Shown piece after piece: positions 3 to 17,075 of a stretch of DNA of 18,654 nt. A program made the position numbers and the translations under genes. This DNA comes from Nitrosopumilales archaeon (GTDB taxonomy: Archaea > Thermoproteota > Nitrososphaeria > Nitrososphaerales > Nitrososphaeraceae): contig JBIQJB010000022.1 in NCBI GenBank assembly GCA_044507735.1, positions 20,134 through 38,787 on the forward strand. The letters are read 5' to 3'. The first letter of the stretch is position 1; every line of letters begins with the position of its first letter. A model generated the notes under the pieces. The model had not been told where the DNA came from. It did no database searches and saw only the letters and a program-made list of their open reading frames with translations.

Positions 3-1055
3 GGCAGTCTGAACGAGTCTGCCTTTCAGATCGGACAAATAAGCACGGTCGAAGCTTCAGACACCGAACTCACGCTGCCCGACCTGTTCGCAAGAGTGGA
101 AAAATCCGTCGTGCAGATTACCGATAGTCATGAGACAGACCCGCTGGATTCGCGGCTGGGATCGGGTTTTGTGTATGACACCAACGGCCACATCATCACC
201 AACTACCACGTGGTAAATGGCGGAGGTAGGCTTGACGTGACCTTTCTCGACGGCACCGTCTACCGCGCGTCGCTGATAGGCTCAGATCCATATACAGACC
301 TCGCAGTTCTCTATGTGGAAAATGTGCCGCAGGATAAGCTGGTTCCTCTGCCACTTGCCGATTCCTCGTCGGCCCGGGTTGGCCAGCAGGTTGCAGCGAT
401 TGGCAACCCGTTTGGGCTCTCCGGCTCTATGAGCGCAGGCATCATCAGCGGAATCGGAAGGCTGCTGCCTTCGCAGGAAGCCGGCGCCTTTTCGATACCT
501 GATGTCATTCAGACAGACGCCCCCATCAACCCCGGAAACTCGGGCGGCCCGCTGCTCAACATGAGGGGCGAAGTTATTGGCATCAATTCCGCAATCTTTT
601 CGACAACCGGCCAGTTTGTAGGCGTAGGCTTTGCAATCCCGTCAAATACTATTGCCAAGGTAGTGCCTTCACTTATAACCACAGGATCGTTCCAGCACCC
701 GTGGCTTGGGGTGTCAGGAATGGACATGACGCCTGGCATCGCCGAACGGCTGGGACTTCAAGAGCCCCGGGGATTTCTGGTGATGGAAGTAGTGCCTGGT
801 AGCCCTGCAGCGCAGGCAGGCATCAGGGCGGGCACCCAGGACACCACCGTTGACGGCCGTCGCGTAAGCCTGGGCGGTGACGTGATTGTTGCCATCGACA
901 ACCACACCGTGAGAAAGATAGACGACATCCTCGTTTATCTGCAGAGGGAAAAGTCCGTTGGAGATGAACTGCTCCTGACAATTCTCCGCGACGGGCAGGA
1001 GATGCAGATATCGGCGACTCTTGGGGCGAGGCCAAACCAGCAACTTTCGCCCTAG
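3..1055 (+). CDS. htrA: HtrA/DegP-family trypsin-like serine protease with C-terminal PDZ domain (5'-truncated by the window)
   Basis: Catalytic motifs TNYHVV (His), DLAVL (Asp) and IQTDAPINPGNSGGPL (Ser). PDZ-type WLGV...VVPGSPAAQAG...GDVIVAID. The frame is open from base 3 to the GTG at 96, so the true start lies upstream of the window. Confidence 0.95.
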   Translation, partial: GSLNESAFQIGQISTVEASDTELTLPDLFARVEKSVVQITDSHETDPLDSRLGSGFVYDTNGHIITNYHVVNGGGRLDVTFLDGTVYRASLIGSDPYTDLAVLYVENVPQDKLVPLPLADSSSARVGQQVAAIGNPFGLSGSMSAGIISGIGRLLPSQEAGAFSIPDVIQTDAPINPGNSGGPLLNMRGEVIGINSAIFSTTGQFVGVGFAIPSNTIAKVVPSLITTGSFQHPWLGVSGMDMTPGIAERLGLQEPRGFLVMEVVPGSPAAQAGIRAGTQDTTVDGRRVSLGGDVIVAIDNHTVRKIDDILVYLQREKSVGDELLLTILRDGQEMQISATLGARPNQQLSP

Positions 1056-1073
1056 CAATATCATTTATTAGTA

Positions 1074-2279
1074 ATGGACAGCAGTAGTCTTTTGGTACTG
1101 GAATTGCTAGCAAATCTTCCTGCCATTACCGAGATTCTGGGCCGGCCGGAGATTGGCCGGGAAGAAGCGAACCAGCTGATGCAAGAATGCCCAACTAGCA
1201 TGCTTGTGGAAGCGGCCGGCAGGATCAGGGACAGGACGAAACCGGGCGCCATCACTTATTCAAGAAAGGTGTTCATCAACCTCGTAAACCTCTGCAGGGA
1301 CACCTGCACCTACTGCACGTACAAGAAGGAACCGGGAGACCCTCTTCTCTCTTTGCTAGGGCCCCGTCAGGTGCTAGCGATTGCAGAGGCCGGAAAGAGA
1401 TATCGATGCACCGAGGCGCTCTTTGTGACCGGCGAGAGGCCGGAACAAAGGTATCCAGAAGCGATTAACTGGCTCAAGTCTCTTGGACATTCATCGACGG
1501 TTGAATACATACGGGAAATGAGCGAGCTTGTTCTTGAAAAGACGGGGCTTCTCCCGCACACAAATGCGGGCAGCATGACAAAAAAGGAAATGGCGATGCT
1601 AAAGGATACAAACGTGAGCCTTGGGGTGATGCTGGAAACTTCAAGCGAGCGCCTGATGGGAAAGGGCATGCCCCACGAAGGAGCACCAAGCAAGAACCCA
1701 AAAGTCAGGATAAAGACGCTGCAAAGTGCGGGCGAGCTGAAATTTCCTATGACGACTGGCCTTCTGGTAGGAATAGGTGAGACTCCTGAAGAGCTGGTGG
1801 ATTCTCTCTTTGTGATAAAGCAGCTGCATGAAAGATACGGTCACATACAGGAAGTGATATTGCAGAATTTTGCGCCAAAGCCGGAAACCCAAATGGCCGA
1901 CTTTCCTCCGGCGCCGACAGAATACTTTATCCGTGCAGTTGCGATTGCGCGCATGATCATGCCAGAGATGAACTTGCAGGTTCCTCCAAACCTCAACCCC
2001 GATATCTTTGGTACCTACATCGATGCAGGGATCAACGACTGGGGAGGAATATCGCCCGTGACCATTGACCATGTCAATCCGGAATTCCCGTGGCCCTCAA
2101 TTGCATCTGTGAAGAGCGTGACAGAATCAAAGGGATACGGGTTCAGGGCAAGGCTTCCTGTATATCCTGAATTCATCAAAGGTGGATTTATTACATCGGA
2201 GCAGCTTTTGCATCGCATAGATTTGATTGCCGACAGCTCTGGGCTGGTAAGGGAGGATTACTTCGCCGATGTCAATTGA
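1074..2279 (+). CDS. cofG: FO synthase subunit CofG (radical SAM; F420 biosynthesis)
   Basis: ITYSRKVFINLVNLCRDTCTYCTY (CxxxCxxC), CTEALFVTGERPE, LLPHTNAG, GHIQEVILQNF, QVPPNL and GINDWGGISPVTIDHVNPEFPWP. Followed directly by cofH. The exact start is uncertain. Confidence 0.95.
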   Translation: MDSSSLLVLELLANLPAITEILGRPEIGREEANQLMQECPTSMLVEAAGRIRDRTKPGAITYSRKVFINLVNLCRDTCTYCTYKKEPGDPLLSLLGPRQVLAIAEAGKRYRCTEALFVTGERPEQRYPEAINWLKSLGHSSTVEYIREMSELVLEKTGLLPHTNAGSMTKKEMAMLKDTNVSLGVMLETSSERLMGKGMPHEGAPSKNPKVRIKTLQSAGELKFPMTTGLLVGIGETPEELVDSLFVIKQLHERYGHIQEVILQNFAPKPETQMADFPPAPTEYFIRAVAIARMIMPEMNLQVPPNLNPDIFGTYIDAGINDWGGISPVTIDHVNPEFPWPSIASVKSVTESKGYGFRARLPVYPEFIKGGFITSEQLLHRIDLIADSSGLVREDYFADVN

Positions 2280-3516
2280 CTCGCTGCTAAAGAGCGCTGA
2301 CCCTGTAGTGGCAACTGCGCTTGATAAAGCCCTTTCAGGCAAGGACATCTCTACCGACGAAGCCGTTGCGCTGTTTGACTCTACCGGCCTTGAGATGAAC
2401 CTTGTGGTGACTGTGGCCGACGAGCTCCGGCGCAGGACGGTCGGTGACAATGTAACTTATGTTGTGAACAGAAACATCAACTTTACAAACGTCTGCATAA
2501 AGCAATGCGGCTTTTGCGCTTTCAGCAGGGACTTTAGGGAAGAGGAAGGATACTTTTTGCCAACAGAAGAGATTGTGAGAAGGGCACAGGAAGCAGCGGC
2601 GCTTGGCGCGACTGAAGTGTGCATCCAGGCGGGGCTGCCGCCCAAGATGGATGGCAACCTCTACCCTGACATCTGCAGGGCGGTCAAGAAACACCTTCCA
2701 GACATTCACATCCATGCCTTTTCGCCAGAAGAGGTCTTGTATGGAGCGGTAAGATCTGAGACGCCGGTTCCAGAATACCTCAAAATGCTGAAGGAGGCCG
2801 GAGTTGGAAGCCTGCCGGGGACGGCGGCCGAAATTCTGGACCAGTCCCTCCGTGATGTCATCTCCCCGGGGAGGATTTCTGTCAAGGACTGGGTCTCTAC
2901 CATAAAGGAGGCACATGCACTTGGAATACCGACCACCTCAACCATAATGTACGGACACATCGAAACATCGCGCCACAAAGCAGAACACATCGCCTTCCTG
3001 CGTGAGATCCAGAAGGAGACACACGGCTTTACAGAATTTGTGCCACTCAGCTTTGTTCACACCGAGGCGCCGATGTTTGGCCGAGGCATGGTGCCCAACA
3101 TCAGACCTGGCCCCGATGGGAATGAAGTGATCAAGATGCACGCAGTCTCCCGGATAATGCTGAACAACCACATTCCAAATATCCAAGTCTCGTGGGTCAA
3201 GGAAGGCCCGAGGATGTCTCAGCTGCTCCTTGGGGCAGGCGTCAACGATTTTGGCGGCACGCTGATCAACGAGAGCATCTCCACTGCCGCCGGCGCCCAG
3301 AACGGGCAGCTGATGAGGCCAAAGGAAATACGGCAGCTGATAAGATCTGCCGGCAGGATACCTGTTCAGCGCTCCACAACTTACAAGGCGCTCAAAGTAT
3401 TTTCAGATGAAGATGATTCTGCCGCAGATTCCGCGCTTGACAGGGCTGATGCTTCGCAGTTTGGATCCTACCACCAGCTGATCAAACTGGACAAGTTCAG
3501 GTACAAGAAGCAATAG
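2269..3516 (+). CDS. cofH: FO synthase subunit CofH (radical SAM)
   Basis: VTYVVNRNINFTNVCIKQCGFCAFSR, HIHAFSPEE, SLPGTAAEIL, TTSTIMYGHIE, NIQVSWVKEG and NDFGGTLINESIS. Overlaps the cofG end by 11 nt. Confidence 0.95.
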   Translation: MSIDSLLKSADPVVATALDKALSGKDISTDEAVALFDSTGLEMNLVVTVADELRRRTVGDNVTYVVNRNINFTNVCIKQCGFCAFSRDFREEEGYFLPTEEIVRRAQEAAALGATEVCIQAGLPPKMDGNLYPDICRAVKKHLPDIHIHAFSPEEVLYGAVRSETPVPEYLKMLKEAGVGSLPGTAAEILDQSLRDVISPGRISVKDWVSTIKEAHALGIPTTSTIMYGHIETSRHKAEHIAFLREIQKETHGFTEFVPLSFVHTEAPMFGRGMVPNIRPGPDGNEVIKMHAVSRIMLNNHIPNIQVSWVKEGPRMSQLLLGAGVNDFGGTLINESISTAAGAQNGQLMRPKEIRQLIRSAGRIPVQRSTTYKALKVFSDEDDSAADSALDRADASQFGSYHQLIKLDKFRYKKQ

Positions 3517-3669: not shown

Positions 3670-4803
3670 GTGTTATCTAGTCGAGAGCCAACAGGCGCCA
3701 GCAATAACAATGGTGGCAGCGGCCTGCAGCTCTGCACAGTTTGCAGTGGACAATTGATCTGCGACGCCGACAGCGGCGAAGAAGTTTGTGTCAGCTGCGG
3801 TGTAGTTGCACGCGACAACTCGGAGCTGTCCGCCGAGCGGCGCGCGTTGACTTTGGACGAGATGGGCAAGAGATACAGAGCCGGCGAACCTACATCGCTC
3901 ATGATGTATGACATGGGTCTTGCAAGCCTTATTGACAACAAGAACATTGACGCAAATGGCAAGCATATCCGGGCAAGTCCGGAGATCGAGAGGCTGCGGA
4001 GACTGAACAGGATGGCAATGTCCAACAGTTCCAAGACCAAGAACCTCAACAAGGCCATGCGCGAGATCCGCCGGATAACCGAGATCCTTGGACTCGGGGC
4101 GCCTATTGCAAAGCGGTCCGCATACATCTACAGAAAAGCCCTAGACAGAGACCTGATAAGGGGCAGGTCGATCACCGGCATCGTAGCAGCAACCATATAC
4201 ATCGCCTGCAAAGACACTGGCACACCGCGCTCAATAGGCGAAATCCAAGAGGTGATCGGCAAGAGTGACAGAAAAAACATTGCCTACTATTACAAGTTCC
4301 TGATGCGCAAGATGAAGATCCACTTGCCGCTGCCCGTCCCTTCAAACAGCATGTCTCGGATAGCTGACAGGGCCAGGTTGTCTGAGAGGACAGTCAGGAA
4401 GGCCCTGGAAATATTGTCTCAGGTAGGAGATGATGCCCTCCTGTCCGGCAAGAACCCTGTTTCGCTTGCCGCTGCTGCCCTCTACCTCGCGGCAGTGGAG
4501 ACAGGCGAATACACAACGCAGCTCAAGATTGCCATAGCGGCCGGTGTCAGCACCGTGACTGTAAGAAAAAGATGCATTGAGATAGTCGGCCTCGTCAGGC
4601 AAGTAAATTCGCAAATATTGGTCAAGTCAATCCAGCAGGGCCGCGATCAACCAACAGAAGGAAGAAGAAAAGCCGGAGAGCAAGGCCCACAGGTGCAGGG
4701 AGCGGAAGAGGGAGAAGAGGGAGAAGATGGAGCCTCTGAAAAAAAGAACATCAAGCACCTTTTCCTTGCAAGCAGGGGACTACTACAACAACAGCAGCAC
4801 TGA
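3670..4803 (+). CDS. tfb: Transcription initiation factor IIB (TFB) paralogue
   Basis: N-terminal Zn ribbon CTVC...DADSGEEVCVSCGVV. Two cyclin-fold repeats (IYRKALDRDLIRGRSI...AATIYIAC; SGKNPVSLAAAALYLA...TQLKIAIAAGVSTVTVRKR). Acidic/Gln-rich C-terminal tail. GTG start is uncertain. Confidence 0.93.
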   Translation: MLSSREPTGASNNNGGSGLQLCTVCSGQLICDADSGEEVCVSCGVVARDNSELSAERRALTLDEMGKRYRAGEPTSLMMYDMGLASLIDNKNIDANGKHIRASPEIERLRRLNRMAMSNSSKTKNLNKAMREIRRITEILGLGAPIAKRSAYIYRKALDRDLIRGRSITGIVAATIYIACKDTGTPRSIGEIQEVIGKSDRKNIAYYYKFLMRKMKIHLPLPVPSNSMSRIADRARLSERTVRKALEILSQVGDDALLSGKNPVSLAAAALYLAAVETGEYTTQLKIAIAAGVSTVTVRKRCIEIVGLVRQVNSQILVKSIQQGRDQPTEGRRKAGEQGPQVQGAEEGEEGEDGASEKKNIKHLFLASRGLLQQQQH

Positions 4804-4819: not shown

Positions 4820-5563
4820 TTATCTGATCTGCCAGTGCACTGAATATGAGGATCGCAGGGCATCCATTGAATTATCGAACGGCTGCGATGGCGCCGCCCC
4901 TATAAGCTCTGGGCTTGAAAACACAATCACGCCCGCAAGCACTATCCCGAGGGCAAGTGCGGACAAGACCGTGCCCTTGTATCCAATGGCAGGATATGAA
5001 TGCCTGCCAAACACCAGGAAGGAAGCCAAGAGTGCGGCCGCTATTCCAAGCGATGCCACGATCCCGGTATTTGCGGCTGAGAATGCTGCCAGGATCTGCC
5101 AATTTGCGATCCCACCTGCAAGTATGATTGCGGCAGCAGCCGAAGCTGTCAATATGCCTGCAAACATCAGCCGGCGCCCTTCAAAATGATGTGCCTGCCT
5201 TACTGGCTCCTCAGGTCTGTCCTGCGTCGCAGTCTTTGTAGGTTGCGGCTGTTGTTGCGGCTGTTGTTGCTGTTGCTCTTCCTTTGGTTGATGAGGGGAA
5301 ATTCCTCCCGCATATTTGGGGTCTGCTTCCCGCAGGAACTGCAGCCCCTCTTCAGTTATCATGTAGTGCTTTGAGTCTTTGGTAACGTAGTTGCTCATCC
5401 TCTCCAGGTGGTAGTAGATCGAACCAGTCGAGAGGCCCGTTGAAGACTTGATGTCGGAAAACCCTGCAAGGCCGTTCTTTTCTGCTATGGCCCTCAGGAT
5501 CTTTATCCTCGTCCTTCTAGCGCGTAGCTGGGTCTCTCCCTTCAAACTGCCCATCATAGTCAT
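4820..5563 (-). CDS. Membrane-anchored winged helix-turn-helix (ArsR-like) transcriptional regulator
   Basis: N-terminal RIKILRAI...FSDIKSSTGLSTGSIYYHLERM...YMITEEG wHTH pattern, then a Gln/Pro-rich linker and about three hydrophobic TM-like segments. Confidence 0.8.
   Translation of the reverse strand: MTMMGSLKGETQLRARRTRIKILRAIAEKNGLAGFSDIKSSTGLSTGSIYYHLERMSNYVTKDSKHYMITEEGLQFLREADPKYAGGISPHQPKEEQQQQQPQQQPQPTKTATQDRPEEPVRQAHHFEGRRLMFAGILTASAAAAIILAGGIANWQILAAFSAANTGIVASLGIAAALLASFLVFGRHSYPAIGYKGTVLSALALGIVLAGVIVFSSPELIGAAPSQPFDNSMDALRSSYSVHWQIR
5242..5276. repeat. Short coding tandem repeat (GTTGCGGCTGTT x2 plus GTT/GCT triplets) encoding the poly-Gln/Pro linker
   Basis: Read directly from the sequence; encodes QQQQQPQQQPQP on the minus strand. 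Confidence 0.75.
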
Positions 5564-7256: not shown

Positions 7257-7286
7257 TTCTTGGATCTGCGCTGTTGGACAGGTCCG

Positions 7287-7322
7287 GCGGTTCCGGGGCT
7301 GGCGATCAGCCCCCGACCCCGC
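7287..7322. repeat. GC-rich imperfect inverted repeat (hairpin) downstream of tRNA-Trp
   Basis: Core GGGGCTG-gcgat-CAGCCCC (7295-7313), extended by GCGG/CCGC. Confidence 0.55.
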
Positions 7323-7580
7323 TCTTCTTCAGCTAGATGTTGTTGCCGTCGTTACCAAAATCCAGATTCTGAACATCTGCAGGAATCGGCTCGAATGATT
7401 CCGAACCTTTTTCTTGTCCTGTGGAAATATTGTGCACCGACCTGTCAAGCACCGTCTATCCGGGTGCAAGACCCAATAGGGTGTTGCATTGATGCATACT
7501 TGTTACATGAAAATCCTCGGTTTGTTGTTATAGAACGTCGCTGCCCAATTCTTAATATCTCTTGTCAAGGGAAAGTCGTA

Positions 7581-8540
7581 ATGTTATATCCGCACTCGGC
7601 CATATTGAGAGCTACAAAAGCAATAACATTGAGCAGCATGCTGTTGCCGCTGCTATTGATTCCGGCTTTGTCGATATCCTCTGCGCATTTTTCAACAGCT
7701 GGTGCTACAGGAGGGGACGATGATGATAAGGCCGATGACACTGGCGTTGTAGTCTATTCAGTATGGGTAGAGAACGCAACAGGTGGCAATCCCGACGTGT
7801 TCTTTGCCAGAAGTGATGATGGAGGCCAGAATTTTGGTGACCCGATCAACCTGAGCCATAACGATGATTGGTCAACACTACCAAAAATCGCCGTCGCTGG
7901 CAATCACATACATGTGGTGTGGCTGGATTCTCACCGCGAACTTGAAGAAGAGGAACGCGGTGTGGTCACGGTCAGGAGCAGCGACGATGGCGGCGAGACA
8001 TTTGACGATGCCGTAATAGTGAGTGAGCGCGAGGTAGGACAGCCGTACAGTAGGCTCAACATTCTGCAGATACATGCAACAACAAGCGACGACGACGAGG
8101 ATGATAGCAACGTGTACATCAGCTGGGTCGCATCTCCTGGTGGACAGTATGCCGGACGCCTCAACTTCGCAAGAAGTGATGATTCCGGTGAGAGTTTTGA
8201 TCTGATGACCGGGCTTGTGCGGGGTGTAGACAATATAGAGATGGAGGTGGTAGCTTCCGGTAACGACGATTCCGACAATATCTATATCGCAGGACAAGCA
8301 TCATCGGAGAACGACATTACGCTCACACACCAGGTCTTTTTCCTAAAGAGCACAGATGGTGGTAAGACATTCGATGACCCCATAATACTGGAAGATGTTG
8401 ACCCGGATGAAGGAGAATCCGTCCGCTTTGAATCAATGGAATTAGACGATGACCAGATCCAGGCGACGTGGTTGAGCGGAGATGAGAATCAACAGACACA
8501 CTTTGCAGTGAGCACCGATGGAGGGGAGACGTGGGGCTAA
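7581..8540 (+). CDS. Secreted BNR/Asp-box repeat (sialidase-like beta-propeller) protein
   Basis: Five Asp-box motifs: RSDDGGQNF, SSDDGGETF, RSDDSGESF, KSTDGGKTF and VSTDGGETW. Hydrophobic signal-like segment LLPLLLIPALSISSA and very acidic composition. Start is ATG 7581 or 7638 rather than the TTG at 7260. Confidence 0.85.
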   Translation: MLYPHSAILRATKAITLSSMLLPLLLIPALSISSAHFSTAGATGGDDDDKADDTGVVVYSVWVENATGGNPDVFFARSDDGGQNFGDPINLSHNDDWSTLPKIAVAGNHIHVVWLDSHRELEEEERGVVTVRSSDDGGETFDDAVIVSEREVGQPYSRLNILQIHATTSDDDEDDSNVYISWVASPGGQYAGRLNFARSDDSGESFDLMTGLVRGVDNIEMEVVASGNDDSDNIYIAGQASSENDITLTHQVFFLKSTDGGKTFDDPIILEDVDPDEGESVRFESMELDDDQIQATWLSGDENQQTHFAVSTDGGETWG

Positions 8541-9181: not shown

Positions 9182-9481
9182 GCTTGGCACTCGAGGTCAT
9201 ATCTTCTACATATGAGTATATGACATTGACTGAGAAATGAGCACATTTTATGGAGGTTGGTGACGTAAGACAGACTACTTTTGGAAAAGTTGATCACATT
9301 TGCTCCTCGCACTGTCTTGCATGCTCAAAATAATGCGATCTCACAATTAATAGTCGACCTAGGACGCAGCTGGGGTCATACGTATGCGTCGCCCGGGGTT
9401 CAGGTTACAGCATCGAGACAAAATTGATAGGATGTGCACGCAATGTATTGTATTGCACTGCATTGCGCGAAGGTTCTCTCT

Positions 9482-9497
9482 AAAAAATTCTTAAATA
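9482..9497 (+). promoter_or_regulatory. Putative BRE/TATA promoter of amoA
   Basis: A-run followed by TTAAATA (9491-9497), about 25 nt before ATG 9521. GGTGA at 9509-9513 is a possible SD. Confidence 0.6.
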
Positions 9498-9520
9498 CAT
9501 CTTTAGTTGGTGATGGATTG

Positions 9521-10171
9521 ATGGTTTGGTTAAGACGTACAACACACTATCTGTTCCTAGTTGTGGTTGCAGTTAACGGCACGCTGCTAACCATCAACAC
9601 AGGCGACTACCTGTTCTACACAGACTGGATGTGGACCTCCTTCGTAGTATTCTCGATCGGGCAATCGACCATGCTCGTTGTGGGTGCGATATACTACATG
9701 CTCTTCACAGGAGTACCAGGAACTGCCACATACTATGCGACCATAATAACAATCTATACCTGGGTTGCAAAGGGTGCATGGTTCGCACTGGGCTATCCAT
9801 ACGACTTCATCGCGACGCCTATATGGATACCTTCAGCAATGCTGCTGGACCTCGCATACTGGTCAACAAGGAGGAACAAACACGCGGCGATACTCATAGG
9901 CGGCTCACTGGTTGGGCTATCGCTCCCGCTGTTCAACATGGTCAACCTGCTGCTCGTCAGGGATCCACTCGAAGTGGCCTTCAAGTATCCAAGGCCGACC
10001 CTTCCTGCATACATGACTCCAATCGAGCCTCAGGTAGGCAAGTTCTACAACAGTCCTGTAGCCTTGGGTTCGGGAGCAGGAGCAGTGCTGTGTGTTCCAA
10101 TGGCAGCATTAGGAGCAAAACTGAACACCTGGACATACAGATGGATGGCCGCATGGAGCAAGTGGGATTAG
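9521..10171 (+). CDS. amoA: Archaeal ammonia monooxygenase subunit A (216 aa)
   Basis: MVWLRRTTHYLF...GDYLFYTDW...FTGVPGTATYY...AFKYPRPTLP.YMTPIEPQVGKFYNSPVALG...KLNTWTYRWMAAWSKWD. The 651-nt length is canonical. The ORF-track start at 9434 is too long. Confidence 0.98.
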   Translation: MVWLRRTTHYLFLVVVAVNGTLLTINTGDYLFYTDWMWTSFVVFSIGQSTMLVVGAIYYMLFTGVPGTATYYATIITIYTWVAKGAWFALGYPYDFIATPIWIPSAMLLDLAYWSTRRNKHAAILIGGSLVGLSLPLFNMVNLLLVRDPLEVAFKYPRPTLPAYMTPIEPQVGKFYNSPVALGSGAGAVLCVPMAALGAKLNTWTYRWMAAWSKWD

Positions 10172-10178
10172 ACCTCCA

Positions 10179-10212
10179 CTCCTTTTCCCCTTTTTCCTTT
10201 TTTCTCTTTCAC
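10179..10212 (+). terminator. Oligo-T/pyrimidine tract, likely archaeal terminator of amoA
   Basis: CTCCTTTTCCCCTTTTTCCTTTTTTCTCTTTC a few nt after the stop codon. Confidence 0.65.
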
Positions 10213-10562
10213 TCTTATGTTCTGCAAAGAATTCTTGTTGAATAGAATGTCTGATCTGCCCTCCAAAAGACGACAATTGCAATATCAATTGACAGCAAAG
10301 GAGGTTTTGAAGGGTGAAAATAATACGCTGCCATGTCTAATGCAAGCTGGAAAGAAACCTGTTGTTGTGATGGCGGGAATATCTTCTTTAAAACCTAGTC
10401 AAAGTGCCATTACTTGTCATGCAATGCATACAAACCAAATAAATATCACTGCAGAATTTTTTGTGATAGCCTAAGCCAGGCCGTTGGAACCCTGAACTGA
10501 ATTAGTGATGGTTTGGCTAAGACAGAACGGGGTTCCAACAAACCAAGGCTGAGGATGGAAAG

Positions 10563-10581
10563 AGAGAAACTGGTATATAAG
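10563..10581 (+). promoter_or_regulatory. Putative BRE/TATA promoter for the 10614/10858 gene pair
   Basis: Purine-rich AGAGAAAC followed by TATATAAG (10574-10581), about 33 nt upstream of ATG 10614. Confidence 0.5.
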
Positions 10582-10613
10582 AATATGCGAAAAATTTGGG
10601 GGGATTTGTCAAC

Positions 10614-10853
10614 ATGATATTGAGTGGTGCAAGGGGTGTACTTCAGAAAATCGACGCGGCAGAAAAGACCATTACTCTGGTCAAGCATACGGGAACTGAG
10701 AATTATCAATGCGCAGATGTAGAGTTTGAACCAGGCAAGTGGGATTCGCTCATAGGAAAGACGGTGGATGTCCAGCTGTGTGACTTTCTTGTTGTGGATG
10801 TATCCGAGCATTCAGAACAACAGGGTGGATCGGATAACCCGGGAGAAGAATAG
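10614..10853 (+). CDS. Small hypothetical protein, possibly OB-fold-like beta barrel
   Basis: 79 aa with GVLQKIDAAEKTITL...LIGKTVDVQL beta pattern, an upstream TATA box, and a 4-nt gap to the next gene. Confidence 0.6.
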   Translation: MILSGARGVLQKIDAAEKTITLVKHTGTENYQCADVEFEPGKWDSLIGKTVDVQLCDFLVVDVSEHSEQQGGSDNPGEE

Positions 10854-10857
10854 AAGA

Positions 10858-11286
10858 ATGCTGGTTTCTTATTCGGAGCTGTGCGAGCAGGTGGTTGCTC
10901 TGGACGCCAGCATACGATTTGCAGGCGTAGCAAACAAGATGGGGAAAATCACTGCCTCTGCGTACAGGAGCGGCCTAGTTCCCCTTCTTTCCAAGGAAGA
11001 GACTGAGCGGACCATCCCGCAGTATCTACTCCGGCTCAGCCCGTCACCAGACCTGGAGAGCAAACTCGGCAGGCCAGTCTACTCTGTTACAGCCTACGAA
11101 AAGATAAGGAGGGCAATTATTCCATTATATGATCCGTATGGAAACACCCGCTCGCTTCTGCTGGTGTCATTTGACATTGAAGCATCCAATCACGATTCGC
11201 TCATTCAAGACAGGATCCTGCCACTGGTAAGAGGGAACGACGACAGCCATATGCCCGACCGCAGAAATTATCAGGATTGGAAGTGA
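10858..11286 (+). CDS. DUF6659-like (roadblock/LC7-like) thaumarchaeal protein, copy 1
   Basis: YSELCEQVVALDASIRFAGVANKMG...LGRPVYSVTAYEKIRRAIIP...LLVSFD. Clear paralogue at 12340. Confidence 0.8.
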   Translation: MLVSYSELCEQVVALDASIRFAGVANKMGKITASAYRSGLVPLLSKEETERTIPQYLLRLSPSPDLESKLGRPVYSVTAYEKIRRAIIPLYDPYGNTRSLLLVSFDIEASNHDSLIQDRILPLVRGNDDSHMPDRRNYQDWK

Positions 11287-11819
11287 TCCTGCTCGTTCAA
11301 GTGTGACTGCTCCTGCACATGATATCTGCTGTGGGAACTTTCTGTGTTCGTATGGGTTCTTTGTGCAATCGCCAATGGTTCAGACAATGTCAGAGTTTCA
11401 CCCTCTACTACTTGAACTGCGTGCCTGAAGCTTATCGCGCGACCCCCCATATGATGACATTGTTTGCGGCGGTTCTGTTCACTAGCTCTTTCTGCACCTC
11501 AAATGTTTCCGCGCCGATTTTCTCCTATCCGATCTTCCTTTTTTAGCCAACGGCAAACTATGTTAGAATGGGGCTTGTCAGTGGGGACCCAATCCTCCGA
11601 TTGTCTGCAGCATTTTTGCAGTTACAGCAGAATCGAGTATTCCAAGGTCAGCAGCATTGATCTCTGATACATGTCCTATCAGCTTCGCTTCTGTTCCTCT
11701 TTCCTTTTGCAGGCGCGAATTGGCGAATCCGCATTTTGCACCTAGATGCTATGCAGTGCAGACTCACTTCCTAAATAGATGTGAATTGCTGGCTGTCTTG
11801 CTATAGCAGGAGAAAAGAA

Positions 11820-12062
11820 ATGTCAAGCTTGAATGGGGAAAATGTTGCCGGCGCAGCCTTTCTGTTCTTCTCTGCTCTTTTGATGGCAGCAGGACAGGTA
11901 GATGCTGTCTTTGGCTCGCTGTACCCTGCATATTACATTTTGGCAGCCACGGGAGTCGCCCTAGTTTTGTTGGGCTACCGGACCTGGCGCATCGAGACAG
12001 CACGAGAAAGTGAAACAAGACCTACGAGGGAGCTGCACAGCACCTCGCCAGACAGGACCTGA
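11820..12062 (+). CDS. Small two-TM membrane protein
   Basis: ATG 11820 preceded by AGGAG. Two hydrophobic segments (VAGAAFLFFSALLMAAG; YYILAATGVALVLLGY) and a charged tail. Confidence 0.7.
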   Translation: MSSLNGENVAGAAFLFFSALLMAAGQVDAVFGSLYPAYYILAATGVALVLLGYRTWRIETARESETRPTRELHSTSPDRT

Positions 12063-12339
12063 CATGGGAGAATGACATTCCCATGGCATGGTTGGATCCC
12101 AGCTTCATTACAGTGCAGCAAGGGAAGTTCTGCAGGCGAGGATGCATGACATCGGCCGGAATGACTGCAGACTATGCGAAATCTTCATCAAATGGGATTG
12201 TAGTAATTATCCTTGGTGCAACTGCGCGAGCCAAATACACTCACAGAGCTGATGGTGCATAGGAATGCGTGAAGAAAAGTCAGATGCAAATGCCGGTAAT
12301 GTGGAGGACAAGCAAGCGTACCTTGGAATCCGGTCAGTG

Positions 12340-12735
12340 ATGTCATACGAAGATTTGTGTCAGCAGGTCGTGTCTCTGGATGGCGGTGTGCGCTTTGCTG
12401 GGATCGCTGACTACCAGGGGAACATCCTTGCCACAAAGTACAGAAAAGACGTAGAAAAATCCCCATTGTTAACAGAGGATGAGCTCAGGCTGTCAATGTC
12501 TCAATCACTCCTTAGGATGGGCACTCGAAAGGCCTCTGAAGGAAGTCTTGGAAGACCTCTATACTCTATAACGACATATGAAAAAGTAAAACGTGCAACC
12601 ATACCCATTGTGTACGATGGCAATGACTACTTGCTAATGATTTCGCTCGATTTGGCGGCACGCCCCGGACCACTGATAACCAAGAAGATACTACCACTTG
12701 TAAAATCGATATCGTCTCCTCCAGCTTCAATCTAG
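12340..12735 (+). CDS. DUF6659-like (roadblock/LC7-like) thaumarchaeal protein, copy 2
   Basis: MSYEDLCQQVVSLDGGVRFAGIADYQG...LGRPLYSITTYEKVKRATIP...LMISLD. Start chosen by alignment to copy 1 (alternative ATG 12265). Confidence 0.8.
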   Translation: MSYEDLCQQVVSLDGGVRFAGIADYQGNILATKYRKDVEKSPLLTEDELRLSMSQSLLRMGTRKASEGSLGRPLYSITTYEKVKRATIPIVYDGNDYLLMISLDLAARPGPLITKKILPLVKSISSPPASI

Positions 12736-13375: not shown

Positions 13376-14569
13376 TTACTTCAAATTGTGGGCTCTGGTT
13401 ATTGCCGGGTCCAGCACCTTGCCATCCTTGATACCAACAGCCCTGACAAGCTCGGGCCGCATCGACTTGCTTGCAACTTGCTGTACATAGTCCAGAATTA
13501 TGGATGACAGTTCCATCGAGGCATACCTTGGAACTATCGACGGAATGTTTGGCACGCGGATAAAGATATTGCCGAAATAGTCTGCCTGAGCTGGATTCAA
13601 TATTGTGCCTGTGCTTGATGGCGAATATTCTCCTGCAGGGTCAAAGTATGGAAAGTTGCCACCCTGGTCTACTGCAACGTCGATGATTATCTTTTTCCTC
13701 ATCTCGGAGATTTCTTTGAGCAAGTTCTCATCAACAACCCTGTCTGACTTTTCTTTGTCATAGGTAGAGCCGATCATGACATAGGCGCTGCGCAAGATGT
13801 CTCTCTCGGCCGCAGTGACTACCGTGCATTTTGGGAGGTTGAGCTCTTGCAGGTATTTCCTGCGACCCTCGCGCTTTTCAACAATGGTGATCTTGGCTCC
13901 AAGCGCCGAGCACACCTTCGCAGCGGTCTCACCCACTGTCCCGCCACCAAATATTATCACCATCCTGTCCTGCAGCGACAGCATGCGCTTTAGCTCGTTG
14001 TCGATGTTGTTGTTACTGGCGTTAATGATCTGTTCAAAGCCGTTGACAAACTTGCTCTTGACCTGATCGGCGCCCGTCTTGAGCCTGATGGACTTGTCAT
14101 GTCTGAATGCATAGTTGTGGAAAAAGCCTGCCCAGATACCTGACATCGCCCCTGCAATCCTGCTCATCGGCATCAGGATTGGGGTTTGGCCATTTTCATC
14201 CACTACCTTTTCAAACGATATGAATGTCGCGCGTGACTTCACCGCCGCGTCAGTCAGCTCCTTGCTTGATTCAAAGTGGTTAAAGCCAAAGACCGTGTGA
14301 TGTGGCTTGAGATAGGTGTGTTCACCCTTCGGCACCTGCAACTCCTTCACCTTGACTATCAGGTCACACTCGGAATAAAGCTCTGCTTGCGAGCTCGCGA
14401 TCGATGCTCCAGAAGAGCTGTACTCGTCATCGGAAAAGCCGCTCTTTGAGCCCGCCTGAGACTCGACATAAACCTTGTTGCCTGATCTGACGAGCGACGA
14501 AACAGAGCGCGGAGTCAGGGCCACCCTGTTCTCGTGGTCCTTTATCTCCTTTGGAATACCGATTATCAA
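13376..14569 (-). CDS. ald: Alanine dehydrogenase / AlaDH-PNT family oxidoreductase (bacterial-type, divergent)
   Basis: MIIGIPKEIKDHENRVALTP, LIVKVKE, FGFNHF, MPMSRIAG, Rossmann IFGGGTVG, IIDVAVDQGGNF and VPNIPSIVPR. TTG start preceded by AGGAG. Confidence 0.8.
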   Translation of the reverse strand: MIIGIPKEIKDHENRVALTPRSVSSLVRSGNKVYVESQAGSKSGFSDDEYSSSGASIASSQAELYSECDLIVKVKELQVPKGEHTYLKPHHTVFGFNHFESSKELTDAAVKSRATFISFEKVVDENGQTPILMPMSRIAGAMSGIWAGFFHNYAFRHDKSIRLKTGADQVKSKFVNGFEQIINASNNNIDNELKRMLSLQDRMVIIFGGGTVGETAAKVCSALGAKITIVEKREGRRKYLQELNLPKCTVVTAAERDILRSAYVMIGSTYDKEKSDRVVDENLLKEISEMRKKIIIDVAVDQGGNFPYFDPAGEYSPSSTGTILNPAQADYFGNIFIRVPNIPSIVPRYASMELSSIILDYVQQVASKSMRPELVRAVGIKDGKVLDPAITRAHNLK

Positions 14570-15251: not shown

Positions 15252-17075
15252 ATGTCAAACAAGTCTATAGGACTCGTGGGCGCACTTGCGATAGCCATAT
15301 TTTTTGTAACTGGAAGCGCGCTTGTGCCAATACTGCCTGTGGTATATGCAGAAAGTGAAGGACCGATCAATGCGGGTTCATTCCGTAGTTCAAGTGCCAG
15401 CGTATCCGGCGTTGCCTGGAGCAATTGGTCGGATGCTAAGACGTCTGATGATCAGCGAGCTACGGTGAGTTTGAATGATGGTCAAAATAGCCAAACCCTC
15501 AATGCAGTAAATTTTGATTTTAATATACCGAGCGATGCAATAATAACAGGTGTTCTCGTAGAAATTGAAAAGAGTGCAGCAACCGCAGATAGAATAAAGG
15601 ACAATACTGTTAGATTGATAACCAGTTCCGGTTCTACAGGTGATAACAAGGCTCTCGATGAATTTTGGGGTACAACTGACGAATATTCTAGCTATGGCGG
15701 AGAGGACGATACATGGGGAGTTAACCTGACACCATCTATAGTAAATTCAAATACTTTTGGTGTAGGGATCTCGGCAATCAAACCGGGGGACGAAGATGCG
15801 GGTGTTCAGGCGAGAGTTGATCATATTCGCATGACGGTCTACTACTTCATTGCAGAACATCAAGGACCGAACGCTCCAGCTAATGCGGCTACCGCAGCTC
15901 GTGCAGGTGCAGATGCAAATTGGGCAAATGTTGACAACATAAAAGCATCAGACAATAGCCGCGCAACAGTGACAGTTGATCACGATGGCGATACAAGTAA
16001 TTACCTGCAAGGCACTGGCTTTAACTTCGATATTCCTGCAGGAGCAACAATACACGGAATTGAATTAAGGATTGAAAGAAGTGAAGCACAAGGTACTGCT
16101 GAGATACGAGACGATGTAGTACGGTTAGTTAAGGGTGGTACGATTGTTGGAAACAACAAAGCTCGTAACGGGGAGTGGCCAACCAGTGATGCGACTGCTA
16201 CATATGGAGGCCCCGGAGAACTCTGGGGAACAACATGGACAGCAAGCGACATCAATGATTCACAATTCGGTTTCGTGTTGTCTGTGGAAAGAGATGGTCG
16301 AAATATGGGCTCGGGTCTAGCAAGGGTTGACTTTGCTTCCATAACCGTATACTACTTCATACCAAACAGCCCACCAGAAGCAGAAAGCGCTGTGGTCACC
16401 ACTTACAAAGACACTCCTGTTCAGTTCAAGCTTAATGCAACCGATGCCGAGGGCGATCCATTCACTTTCTCCATCGTAGATGAACCTTCAAACGGAGAGG
16501 TAGAAATTCTTGATGAAAATACCGGCGAAGCGCAATACACCCCTGACGCCGGCTTTGAAGGCACCGACTCGTTCACGTTCAAGGCAGGCGACAGCAGCCC
16601 AGCGACTATAACGATCCAGGTGGTGGAAAACACCGACATTGATGGCGACGGTGTTCCAAACAACGAAGACAATTGCCCAACTATTCCGAATACACTCCAA
16701 GATGACAATGACCATGATGGAATCGGGAATCTGTGTGACGAAACACCAAACGGCGACGGCGGTAGCGTCAATCAGGTAGTAGCTCAGGAGTATGCGGACA
16801 AGATTTCGGACAAGATTCAGGAGATTATAGACAATCTACCGATAGATGACCCGAAAAAGACCGCGACAGTTGACCCGAACGACCTGATACCTGAACTTAA
16901 CCTGTCGGGAACTCTCCTGCCCAATGGCGAGACTCTACAATATGAGACACTCTCCGACCTGCAGCCCTATATTTCACCGACACTGGCTTGGGCATTCCAC
17001 ATGGCGGGAATCGACTGGAACTCGCTGTCGCCAGAACAGCAGGCTTGGCTATACGTACAAGTAGTGCTGTTGTAA
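15252..17075 (+). CDS. Modular secreted/surface protein: two tandem ~168-aa beta-rich domains, a Big_9/cadherin-like domain, a thrombospondin type-3 repeat and a C-terminal helical tail
   Basis: Signal peptide; internal duplication (15354-15851 and 15858-16361); NSPPEA...LNATDAEGDPFTFSIV..PSNG...YTPDAGFEGTDSFTFKA (Big_9); DIDGDGVPNNEDNCP...DNDHDGIGNLCD (TSP3, 16635-16739). Confidence 0.85.
   Translation: MSNKSIGLVGALAIAIFFVTGSALVPILPVVYAESEGPINAGSFRSSSASVSGVAWSNWSDAKTSDDQRATVSLNDGQNSQTLNAVNFDFNIPSDAIITGVLVEIEKSAATADRIKDNTVRLITSSGSTGDNKALDEFWGTTDEYSSYGGEDDTWGVNLTPSIVNSNTFGVGISAIKPGDEDAGVQARVDHIRMTVYYFIAEHQGPNAPANAATAARAGADANWANVDNIKASDNSRATVTVDHDGDTSNYLQGTGFNFDIPAGATIHGIELRIERSEAQGTAEIRDDVVRLVKGGTIVGNNKARNGEWPTSDATATYGGPGELWGTTWTASDINDSQFGFVLSVERDGRNMGSGLARVDFASITVYYFIPNSPPEAESAVVTTYKDTPVQFKLNATDAEGDPFTFSIVDEPSNGEVEILDENTGEAQYTPDAGFEGTDSFTFKAGDSSPATITIQVVENTDIDGDGVPNNEDNCPTIPNTLQDDNDHDGIGNLCDETPNGDGGSVNQVVAQEYADKISDKIQEIIDNLPIDDPKKTATVDPNDLIPELNLSGTLLPNGETLQYETLSDLQPYISPTLAWAFHMAGIDWNSLSPEQQAWLYVQVVLL

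Follow-up and report, generated by a model that had tools for sequence, protein, structure and literature searches.

An amoA gene without an adjacent amoX was found in an 18.7-kb stretch of DNA (contig JBIQJB010000022.1; referred to as the window) from a Nitrososphaeraceae archaeon. The findings as a whole were best explained by assuming that this gene belongs to a paralogue lineage of single origin (referred to as amoA2) in a sub-clade of Nitrososphaera, additional to the canonical amoA linked to amoX (referred to as amoA1), and we consider this explanation likely. A single origin is suggested because the six copies (from the window and five relatives) share amino acid replacements and silent bases, form one clade in the 5' part of the gene, and are all accompanied by a homologous hairpin element.

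Orphan amoA gene and its relatives

The open reading frame (ORF) at 9521..10171 (plus strand) encoded a 216-aa protein, with the stop codon TAG at 10169-10171. The product matched Archaeal_AmoA (Pfam PF12942) along the whole profile (positions 1-183 of 183; E-value of 2.1e-115), and its score of 383 bits was above the curated cut-off of 25.6 bits; an intact 216-aa amoA was found in 81/81 genes compared. These results supported the first-pass annotation of this DNA with regard to the presence of amoA and its ATG at 9521, whereas the gene end that it had placed at 10212 was corrected to the stop codon above, 10212 falling within the T-rich tract. The same annotation had listed a TATA box and a T-tract terminator of its own for this gene. 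Both were present: TTAAATA lay 23 nt 5' of the ATG, and the mRNA is probably leaderless. On the other hand, a TATA box and B recognition element (BRE) occurred 23-24 nt 5' of amoA in all ammonia-oxidizing archaea (AOA) compared in a previous study, the authors of which concluded on a separate promoter for amoA and a probably leaderless transcript (PMC3379541), and a pyrimidine/T tract followed the stop codon in 17/17 amoA loci inspected here; therefore, these elements represent the norm and not a peculiarity. Homology between the window and canonical loci stopped at about 10203-10216. A sequence search of PDB with the window AmoA matched no chain, the AlphaFold2 model of AmoA2 (36-row alignment) was unusable (mean predicted local distance difference test score of 27.9), with no residue placed on a structure, and a hydropathy threshold scan was too crude for defining all helices.

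GTDB species representatives were scanned with the window AmoA, and 80 loci (L001-L080), all of the Nitrososphaeraceae type, were kept (81 sources including the window; 1.01 Mb). ORFs were called in all loci and then clustered. Among the 75 canonical loci, 70 had enough upstream DNA to read. One ORF cluster (median of 100 aa, with two hydrophobic segments) was located directly 5' of amoA on the same strand, and its profile matched the six-frame translations of 70/81 sources. The 11 sources without this gene were the window, L001-L005, and five loci in which the contig ended less than 75 nt 5' of amoA; in other words, the gene was present in 70/70 canonical loci with upstream DNA and in 0/6 loci of the window type. 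In the published descriptions, amoX is a conserved hypothetical gene always beside amoA, with two transmembrane segments in the soil group (PMC3379541; PMC10030591), and a 2026 cryo-EM preprint confirmed AmoX as a subunit packing with AmoC (bioRxiv 10.64898/2026.08.31.748207). The cluster fits AmoX by position, size, and two hydrophobic segments. This label rests on position, size, and topology because no database names the cluster: no family was found in NCBIfam or Pfam, and a protein search yielded 818 relatives, with all source names among the 120 listed being "hypothetical protein".

In the window, there were 109 ORFs of at least 50 aa, and 80 (20 + 60), including every ORF of at least 100 aa not nested in another tested ORF, were analyzed with Pfam. 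The first 20 gave the assignments listed in the table, while the other 60 yielded nothing of relevance. None of the 80 matched the monooxygenase B or C family, and neither the amoX-like profile (a protein of approximately 100 aa with two transmembrane segments) nor the AmoB-cluster profile matched the six-frame translation of the window. The absence of amoX, amoB, and amoC within 9.5 kb upstream and 8.5 kb downstream of amoA, as previously noted, was thus borne out by profiles and Pfam. In 35 sources, the AmoB cluster (Pfam Monooxygenase_B, 31 bits) lay no more than 10 kb from amoA; the window and L001-L005 were not among them.

The five best matches to the window AmoA, with 95-97% aa identity, were L001-L005, all of which lacked amoX, while the identity between AmoA2 and AmoA1 was 92-94%. 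Four of the five metagenome-assembled genomes (MAGs) with an amoX-less amoA also held a canonical amoX-amoA on another contig, in the usual Nitrososphaera context: JAJUFP01 (L001 and canonical L008), DASVCY01 (L002 and L007), JBFLWZ01 (L003 and L022), and QCWB01 (L004 and L013). The two bin14 contigs were 218 and 186 kb in length, and the coverage tags in their names were 39.5 and 43.9. A protein search with AmoA2 was uninformative on the frequency of amoA2 because 90% clustering merged both paralogues (P0121, 2003 members).

The window was syntenic with L002, from a related species, over approximately 12 kb at approximately 83% nt identity; therefore, the locus is not mis-assembled but has been conserved across species. 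A second, different genomic context was seen in L001 and L005, and the amoA cassette of L003 (equivalent to 9448-10216 of the window) was inverted relative to the same downstream block. A simple inversion between the 16-mers or palindromic motifs described below was rejected as the reason why amoA2 occurs in two orientations relative to the hairpin element, as the observed breakpoints did not fit. In L001 and L005, a strongly hydrophobic protein of 175 aa was encoded directly 3' of amoA2 (e.g. L005 2759-3286), for which no Pfam or NCBIfam family was found.

Diagnostic sites and mosaic phylogeny of amoA2

T27 and L31 were found in 6/6 amoA2 copies, and G20, G47, I76, and T99 in 5/6. In contrast, all 22 canonical copies of the same sub-clade had S20, A27, I31, S47, and M76, and position 99 was V in 21 and T in one (L006). 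The window carried G20, T27, L31, G47, and I76, together with GTT at codon 2 and TTA at codon 4, and thus had neither the canonical 5' codons ATGGTCTGGCTT nor the canonical residues at positions 20, 27, 31, 47, and 76. Three of the amoA2 replacements involved two base changes each (ATC to CTG, TCG to GGN, and GTN to ACG). Silent diagnostic bases also differed between amoA2 and canonical copies: nt 6 (6/6 vs 1/75), nt 93 (6/6 vs 0/75), and nt 594 (5/6 vs 3/75).

The full-length DNA tree separated the six copies into two clades, one consisting of the window, L002, and L003, and the other of L004, L005, and L001, located beside the canonical L008. In nt 1-300, the six copies formed one clade with a support of 100/98. 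In nt 301-648, a single clade of six was rejected (approximately unbiased (AU) test, p 4.5e-6), and each copy grouped with the canonical copies of its own lineage. Similar results were obtained with other splits: the six were monophyletic in nt 1-150 and nt 1-240 (Shimodaira-Hasegawa-like approximate likelihood ratio test support of 98), their monophyly was not rejected in nt 1-360 and nt 1-420, and it was rejected in nt 241-648 (p 0.0006), nt 361-648 (p 0.0016), and nt 421-648 (p 0.007).

All four pairs from the same MAG were among the longest runs of identical polymorphic sites in 378 pairs, with shared identical tracts of 46-127 nt: nt 408-534 in L003-L022 (p<=0.001), nt 459-570 in L001-L008 (p 0.002), nt 166-252 in L004-L013 (p 0.007), and nt 147-192 in L002-L007 (p 0.013), all p values being uncorrected. 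The tract of L004-L013 spanned codon 76, at which L004 had reverted to the canonical M. The grouping of the 3' part by lineage, together with these shared tracts, points to an exchange of sequence between amoA2 and amoA1 by gene conversion within one genome. The amoA2 gene was under purifying selection: the ratio of nonsynonymous to synonymous substitution rates (dN/dS) within amoA2 was approximately 0.04-0.05 (0.017/0.354 for the window vs L002, and 0.023/0.566 for L001 vs L004).

Upstream motif and companion hairpin element

The core GCAATGCA/TGCATTGC was found between -130 and -30 of the ATG in 5/6 amoA2 loci but in 0/70 canonical loci, and the amoA2 promoter of L003 contained forms with one mismatch. 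The GCAATGCA core occurred 42 times in total in the 1.01 Mb. Canonical promoters shared AAAATTTTATATA-type boxes, and GAWWTYCGCAC was found further upstream in 13/70 of them and in 0/6 amoA2 promoters. Since the upstream motif of amoA2 was unlike that of amoA1, the two genes are probably regulated differently. A scan for sigma-70 promoters and hairpin terminators, models that are not applicable to archaea, yielded nothing relevant. The positions of these and other features are summarized in the table.

Features of the window and of the hairpin element in its relatives (coordinates are those of each locus; the strand refers to the window)
Feature	Position	Strand	Basis or remark
HtrA-like protease with PDZ domain	3-1055	+	Pfam
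Two radical-SAM CofG/CofH-like genes	1074-2279, 2269-3516	+	Pfam
TFB	3670-4803	+	Pfam
Winged-helix protein	4820-5563	-	Pfam
BNR-repeat protein	7260-8540	+	Pfam
Motif TGCATTGC (reverse complement GCAATGCA)	9459..9466	+	62 nt 5' of ATG; candidate amoA2-specific operator
Basal promoter	9482..9497	+	A-run 9482-9487 (BRE-like); TATA box TTAAATA 9491-9497
amoA2	9521..10171	+	Intact gene of a likely AmoA paralogue; diagnostic residues G20, T27, L31, G47, I76, T99
Pyrimidine/T-rich tract	10172..10215	+	3' of stop; likely archaeal terminator
Second GCAATGCA core and TATA-like ATAAATAT	10421-10428, 10439-10446	+	Approximately 20 nt 5' of the element; candidate element promoter
Conserved hairpin element	10465..10554	+	85-90 nt; 5' arm 10469-10482 antisense to canonical amoA 5' end
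16-mer in hairpin element	10508-10523	+	Sense copy of amoA2 5' end
Hairpin element in L002	11314-11403
Hairpin element in L003	3318-3409
Hairpin element in L001	9806-9889
Hairpin element in L004	3313-3396
Hairpin element in L005	1753-1836
Alanine dehydrogenase	13376-14569	-	Pfam
Big_9/cadherin-like protein	15252-17075	+	Pfam

In a repeat search, the initial 18 nt of amoA were found again at 10506-10523. The 16-mer within this repeat occurred 16 times in the 1.01 Mb (with up to two mismatches): ten occurrences were at amoA starts, and the other six were distributed as one per amoX-less locus, with none in the 75 canonical loci. In each of the six loci, this copy was part of an element that was alignable across both genomic contexts, while the surrounding intergenic DNA was not. 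The identity of the element was 93-96% in group I (window, L002, and L003), 88-96% in group II (L001, L004, and L005), and 77-84% between the groups, and a covariance model found only these six in the 1.01 Mb (E-values from 1e-22 to 5e-27). No family in Rfam 15 matched the element (best E-value of 5.1, far below gathering scores). In the window and L002, the element followed amoA2 in tandem; in L001, L003, L004, and L005, it was located upstream in a divergent orientation. The GCAATGCA core was also found 41-45 nt 5' of the element in 5/6 loci, followed by a TATA-like box.

The predicted fold of the element was a long hairpin (minimum free energy of -39.8 kcal/mol, z -5.45), and 0/200 shuffled sequences were as stable. 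In the alignment, 95% of cells were paired and two pairs were compensatory, which is weak evidence for covariation because there are effectively two groups. The sense 16-mer carried the silent codons specific to amoA2 (GTT at codon 2 and CTA/TTA at codon 4), whereas canonical amoA has GTC at codon 2 in 71/75 copies and mostly CTT at codon 4. The invariant 5' arm was complementary, at 13/14 positions including one G.U, to nt 3-16 at the start of canonical amoA1, and the energies of the predicted duplexes in all six genomes were -23.5 to -26.1 kcal/mol with amoA1 vs -15.4 to -18.1 kcal/mol with amoA2. However, the 5' window of amoA1 ranked 9th of 124 windows along the gene by duplex energy, and this unexceptional rank counts against an antisense role. 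The element may act as a regulatory RNA or as a palindrome bound by a protein, or it may be a by-product of the rearrangement that has been conserved. We also considered, as a doubtful proposal, that amoA2 and the element may constitute a module for switching isoforms: a shared palindromic operator would switch on amoA2 and a small RNA, the RNA would pair with the leaderless amoA1 mRNA but not affect amoA2, owing to two silent changes specific to this lineage (codons 2 and 4), and AmoA2 would replace AmoA1 in the enzyme.

Several other candidates for this region were rejected. A degraded second amoA at 10506-10746 was dismissed as the 12-mer at 10735-10746 lies in frame within a conserved small gene, and tblastn detected no further amoA fragments in the six amoX-less loci. 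Archaeal C/D box small RNAs have conserved C, D', C', and D boxes; the CTGA/TGATGG-like boxes of the window were lost in L001, L004, and L005. A small peptide was also rejected, the reading frame not being kept between the two groups. A 121-aa ORF on the minus strand (10446-10811) is probably no gene; it is kept in both L002 and L003, and its span overlaps those of the element and of the small gene on the plus strand. This small gene (10614-10853), also kept in L002 and L003, has a TATA-like box at about 10575.

Alternative explanations, genomic context, and known systems

If the gene belongs to a paralogue lineage as proposed, amoA2 would give a leaderless monocistronic mRNA under the control of its own BRE/TATA promoter and would encode an alternative AmoA subunit, with fixed differences from AmoA1 in the N-terminal half; G20, T27, and L31 are predicted to be on one face of the first hydrophobic helix. 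AmoA2 would presumably assemble with AmoB, AmoC, AmoX, AmoY, and AmoZ encoded elsewhere. Gene conversion would homogenize the two copies, with selection keeping a few amoA2-specific sites as islands of divergence, and the hairpin element with the same upstream motif would be a candidate for an RNA or operator that regulates both amoA genes.

Several points weigh against this proposal. The window shows 18.7 kb of its genome, in which the presence of a canonical amoX-amoA1 is inferred from relatives. All of the two-copy genomes are MAGs, so that related populations may have been binned together, and no canonical locus for the fifth MAG (that of L005) was among the 80 loci kept. Monophyly of the six full-length genes costs 31 log-likelihood units and was neither recovered nor rejected (AU p 0.09), and the split at nt 300 was picked after the diagnostic sites had been seen; the other splits gave the same picture. 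The conversion test was a permutation on runs of identical polymorphic sites, and its p values are uncorrected over the 378 pairs. Furthermore, the synonymous distance (dS) in codons 1-100 was 0.31-0.54 between amoA2 and amoA1 of the same lineage, and 0.54-1.05 between the two amoA2 groups. Since dS was lower within a lineage, the 5' clade rests mainly on the replacement sites and a few linked silent sites; we read this as pervasive conversion, with selection holding a few sites. The amino acid changes of amoA2 are conservative, and the one orphan amoA reported in print was not transcribed in batch culture (PMC5767755).

The first-pass annotation had offered either a broken amoA-amoX linkage or an extra paralogue. 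The latter was favored by the relatives, in which the canonical locus was seen in four of five MAGs and conversion tracts were found; both copies may likewise coexist in the window's own genome. That the window gene is a sole amoA, from which amoX has moved elsewhere as on fosmid 19c08, is unlikely in our view. Nothing in the window contradicts it, the MAG of L005 had no canonical locus among those kept, and the separation of amoA and amoX was reported once in the soil group (PMC3379541); however, the MAG of L002, which is syntenic with the window, is itself one of the four with a canonical amoX-amoA (L007), the conversion tracts and the phylogeny of the 3' half need a second resident copy, and no transposases flank the window gene, unlike in 19c08. 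The co-occurrence of two copies may also be a binning artefact, in which the amoA2 and canonical contigs come from different co-occurring Nitrososphaera populations. Although an extra amoA in a Nitrosocaldus MAG was judged as such by its authors (PMC7819960), and all of the two-copy genomes here are also MAGs, the Nitrosocaldus copies were 99% identical in identical contexts, whereas here the contexts differ completely and the sites show fixed differences. The pattern also recurs in four MAGs with four different assembly accessions, and the 3' halves of amoA2 cluster with canonical amoA from the same MAG lineage, with which they share the identical tracts of 46-127 nt. We consequently find such an artefact very unlikely.

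Independent duplications in two Nitrososphaera lineages, followed by convergent residue changes, would account for the two clades of the full-length tree, each beside the canonical copies of its own lineage, for synonymous distances that follow lineage and not paralogue type, and for the different genomic contexts of the two groups. Such a history appears highly improbable given the silent diagnostic bases at nt 6, 93, and 594 and the two-base codon changes common to amoA2, the promoter motif and the homologous 85-90-nt element (77-84% identical) in both groups, and the support of 100/98 for monophyly of the 5' part. It is quite unlikely, too, that amoA2 is a silent spare copy, lacking a separate role and kept intact mainly by conversion from amoA1. 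In batch cultures of Ca. N. okcheonensis, the second amoA was untranscribed (PMC5767755), conversion is evident here, and the replacements are conservative. Nevertheless, conversion would erase the diagnostic sites, yet these have been kept across copies with dS of 0.5-1.3; the low dN/dS within amoA2 (approximately 0.04-0.05) and the maintenance of a specific promoter motif and conserved companion element also argue against a spare copy.

The suggestion that the gene lies in an accessory region was not supported by its surroundings. The flanks contained CofG/CofH-like, TFB, and alanine dehydrogenase genes, synteny extended over approximately 12 kb, no GC anomaly or tRNA was found in the window, and no mobile-element family was detected by Pfam among the 80 window ORFs, with no transposases flanking amoA. 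Regarding the other genes, the first approximately 100 codons of the TTG-started ORF of the BNR-repeat protein look non-coding (rich in Arg, Cys, and Pro) and are followed by a signal peptide-like stretch; therefore, the true start is probably further downstream. Downstream of amoA, two tandem pairs (10614-10853 with 10858-11286, and 11781-12062 with 12265-12735) each consist of a small gene and a paralogue of 142-156 aa with a weak match to DUF6659 (E-value of 0.009), and a further member of this family was found near the canonical amoA in L022. The ATG listed for a 172-aa ORF (10768) is probably located upstream of the true start.

The comparison set also provided information on the arrangement of amo genes. 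In many loci among L021 and L031-L080 (other Nitrososphaeraceae genera), amoB was located on the opposite strand directly 5' of amoX-amoA, while in Nitrososphaera-type loci it was approximately 8-9 kb downstream. In view of these arrangements, the phrase "no conserved operon" overstates the scatter of amo genes. In L036, L052, L054, L058, L070, and L071, a TFB-family gene is directly adjacent to amoB, and CofG/CofH-like genes were found within 10 kb of amoA in L021, L047, L051, L057, and L063, as in the window. In L037 and L078, titled "Nitrosopumilus sp.", amoA was nested in the Nitrosocosmicus clade, and the organism names look wrong.

Ammonia-oxidizing bacteria have multi-copy amoCAB operons under concerted evolution, with near-identical whole operons. 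As in these, paralogous amo genes appear to be homogenized by gene conversion here; in contrast, a single gene is copied, conversion is partial, and fixed differences remain. Methylocystis possesses two copper membrane monooxygenases in one cell (pmoCAB1 and pmoCAB2) for different substrate levels, which is a functional analogy for an isoform switch, although a whole operon is duplicated and strongly diverged there, compared with the A subunit only and 92-94% aa identity here. Nitrososphaeraceae carry multiple dispersed amoC paralogues, for which a role in adapting the enzyme to different conditions was proposed (Hodgskiss et al. 2023, PMC10030591); amoA2 is likewise a dispersed extra core subunit gene of ammonia monooxygenase (AMO) in soil AOA, but here the duplication concerns the A subunit. 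Fosmid 19c08 also has a soil-group amoA without adjacent amoX, and Bartossek et al. 2012 (PMC3379541) described it as the sole case known in which these two genes are separated; there, amoA is located with amoB between transposases, whereas the window contains neither amoB nor a transposase. The closest case is Ca. Nitrosotalea okcheonensis CS, in which a second amoA lies over 400 kb away from the cluster, is 95.5% identical to the first, and was not transcribed in batch culture (Herbold et al. 2017, PMC5767755). Similar to amoA2, this copy is away from the amo cluster, has no amoX, amoC, or amoB beside it, and is highly similar to the first copy. However, it concerns one Nitrosopumilales strain, with 95.5% nt identity and no paralogue lineage described, whereas at least six Nitrososphaera genomes are involved here, and the amoA2 lineage is distinguished by diagnostic residues that are fixed, a specific promoter motif, conversion in a mosaic pattern, and the hairpin element that accompanies it. 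The first-pass annotation had suspected an undescribed system. This was too broad in that an orphan second amoA has already been published (PMC5767755), while the lineage, diagnostic sites, mosaic evolution, promoter motif, and companion element appear to be new. The literature searches made here retrieved the Nitrosotalea and Nitrosocaldus cases only, and no paralogue lineage of Nitrososphaera amoA, conversion of archaeal amoA, amoA antisense RNA, or associated element.

The amoA gene is the standard marker for counting and classifying AOA, and is treated as a single-copy gene. A conserved second copy in common soil Nitrososphaera, if true, would inflate abundance and diversity estimates based on amoA, and partial gene conversion would blur amoA phylogenies. 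To our knowledge, almost nothing is known about the regulation of archaeal amo genes; the companion element and shared promoter motif are concrete handles on this subject. Residues 20, 27, 31, 47, 76, and 99 provide a defined set that may bear on substrate affinity, inhibitor sensitivity, and subunit pairing. Furthermore, the idea of exchangeable AMO subunits would be widened from AmoC to the A subunit, and some nitrifying archaea may be capable of swapping a core subunit of this enzyme.

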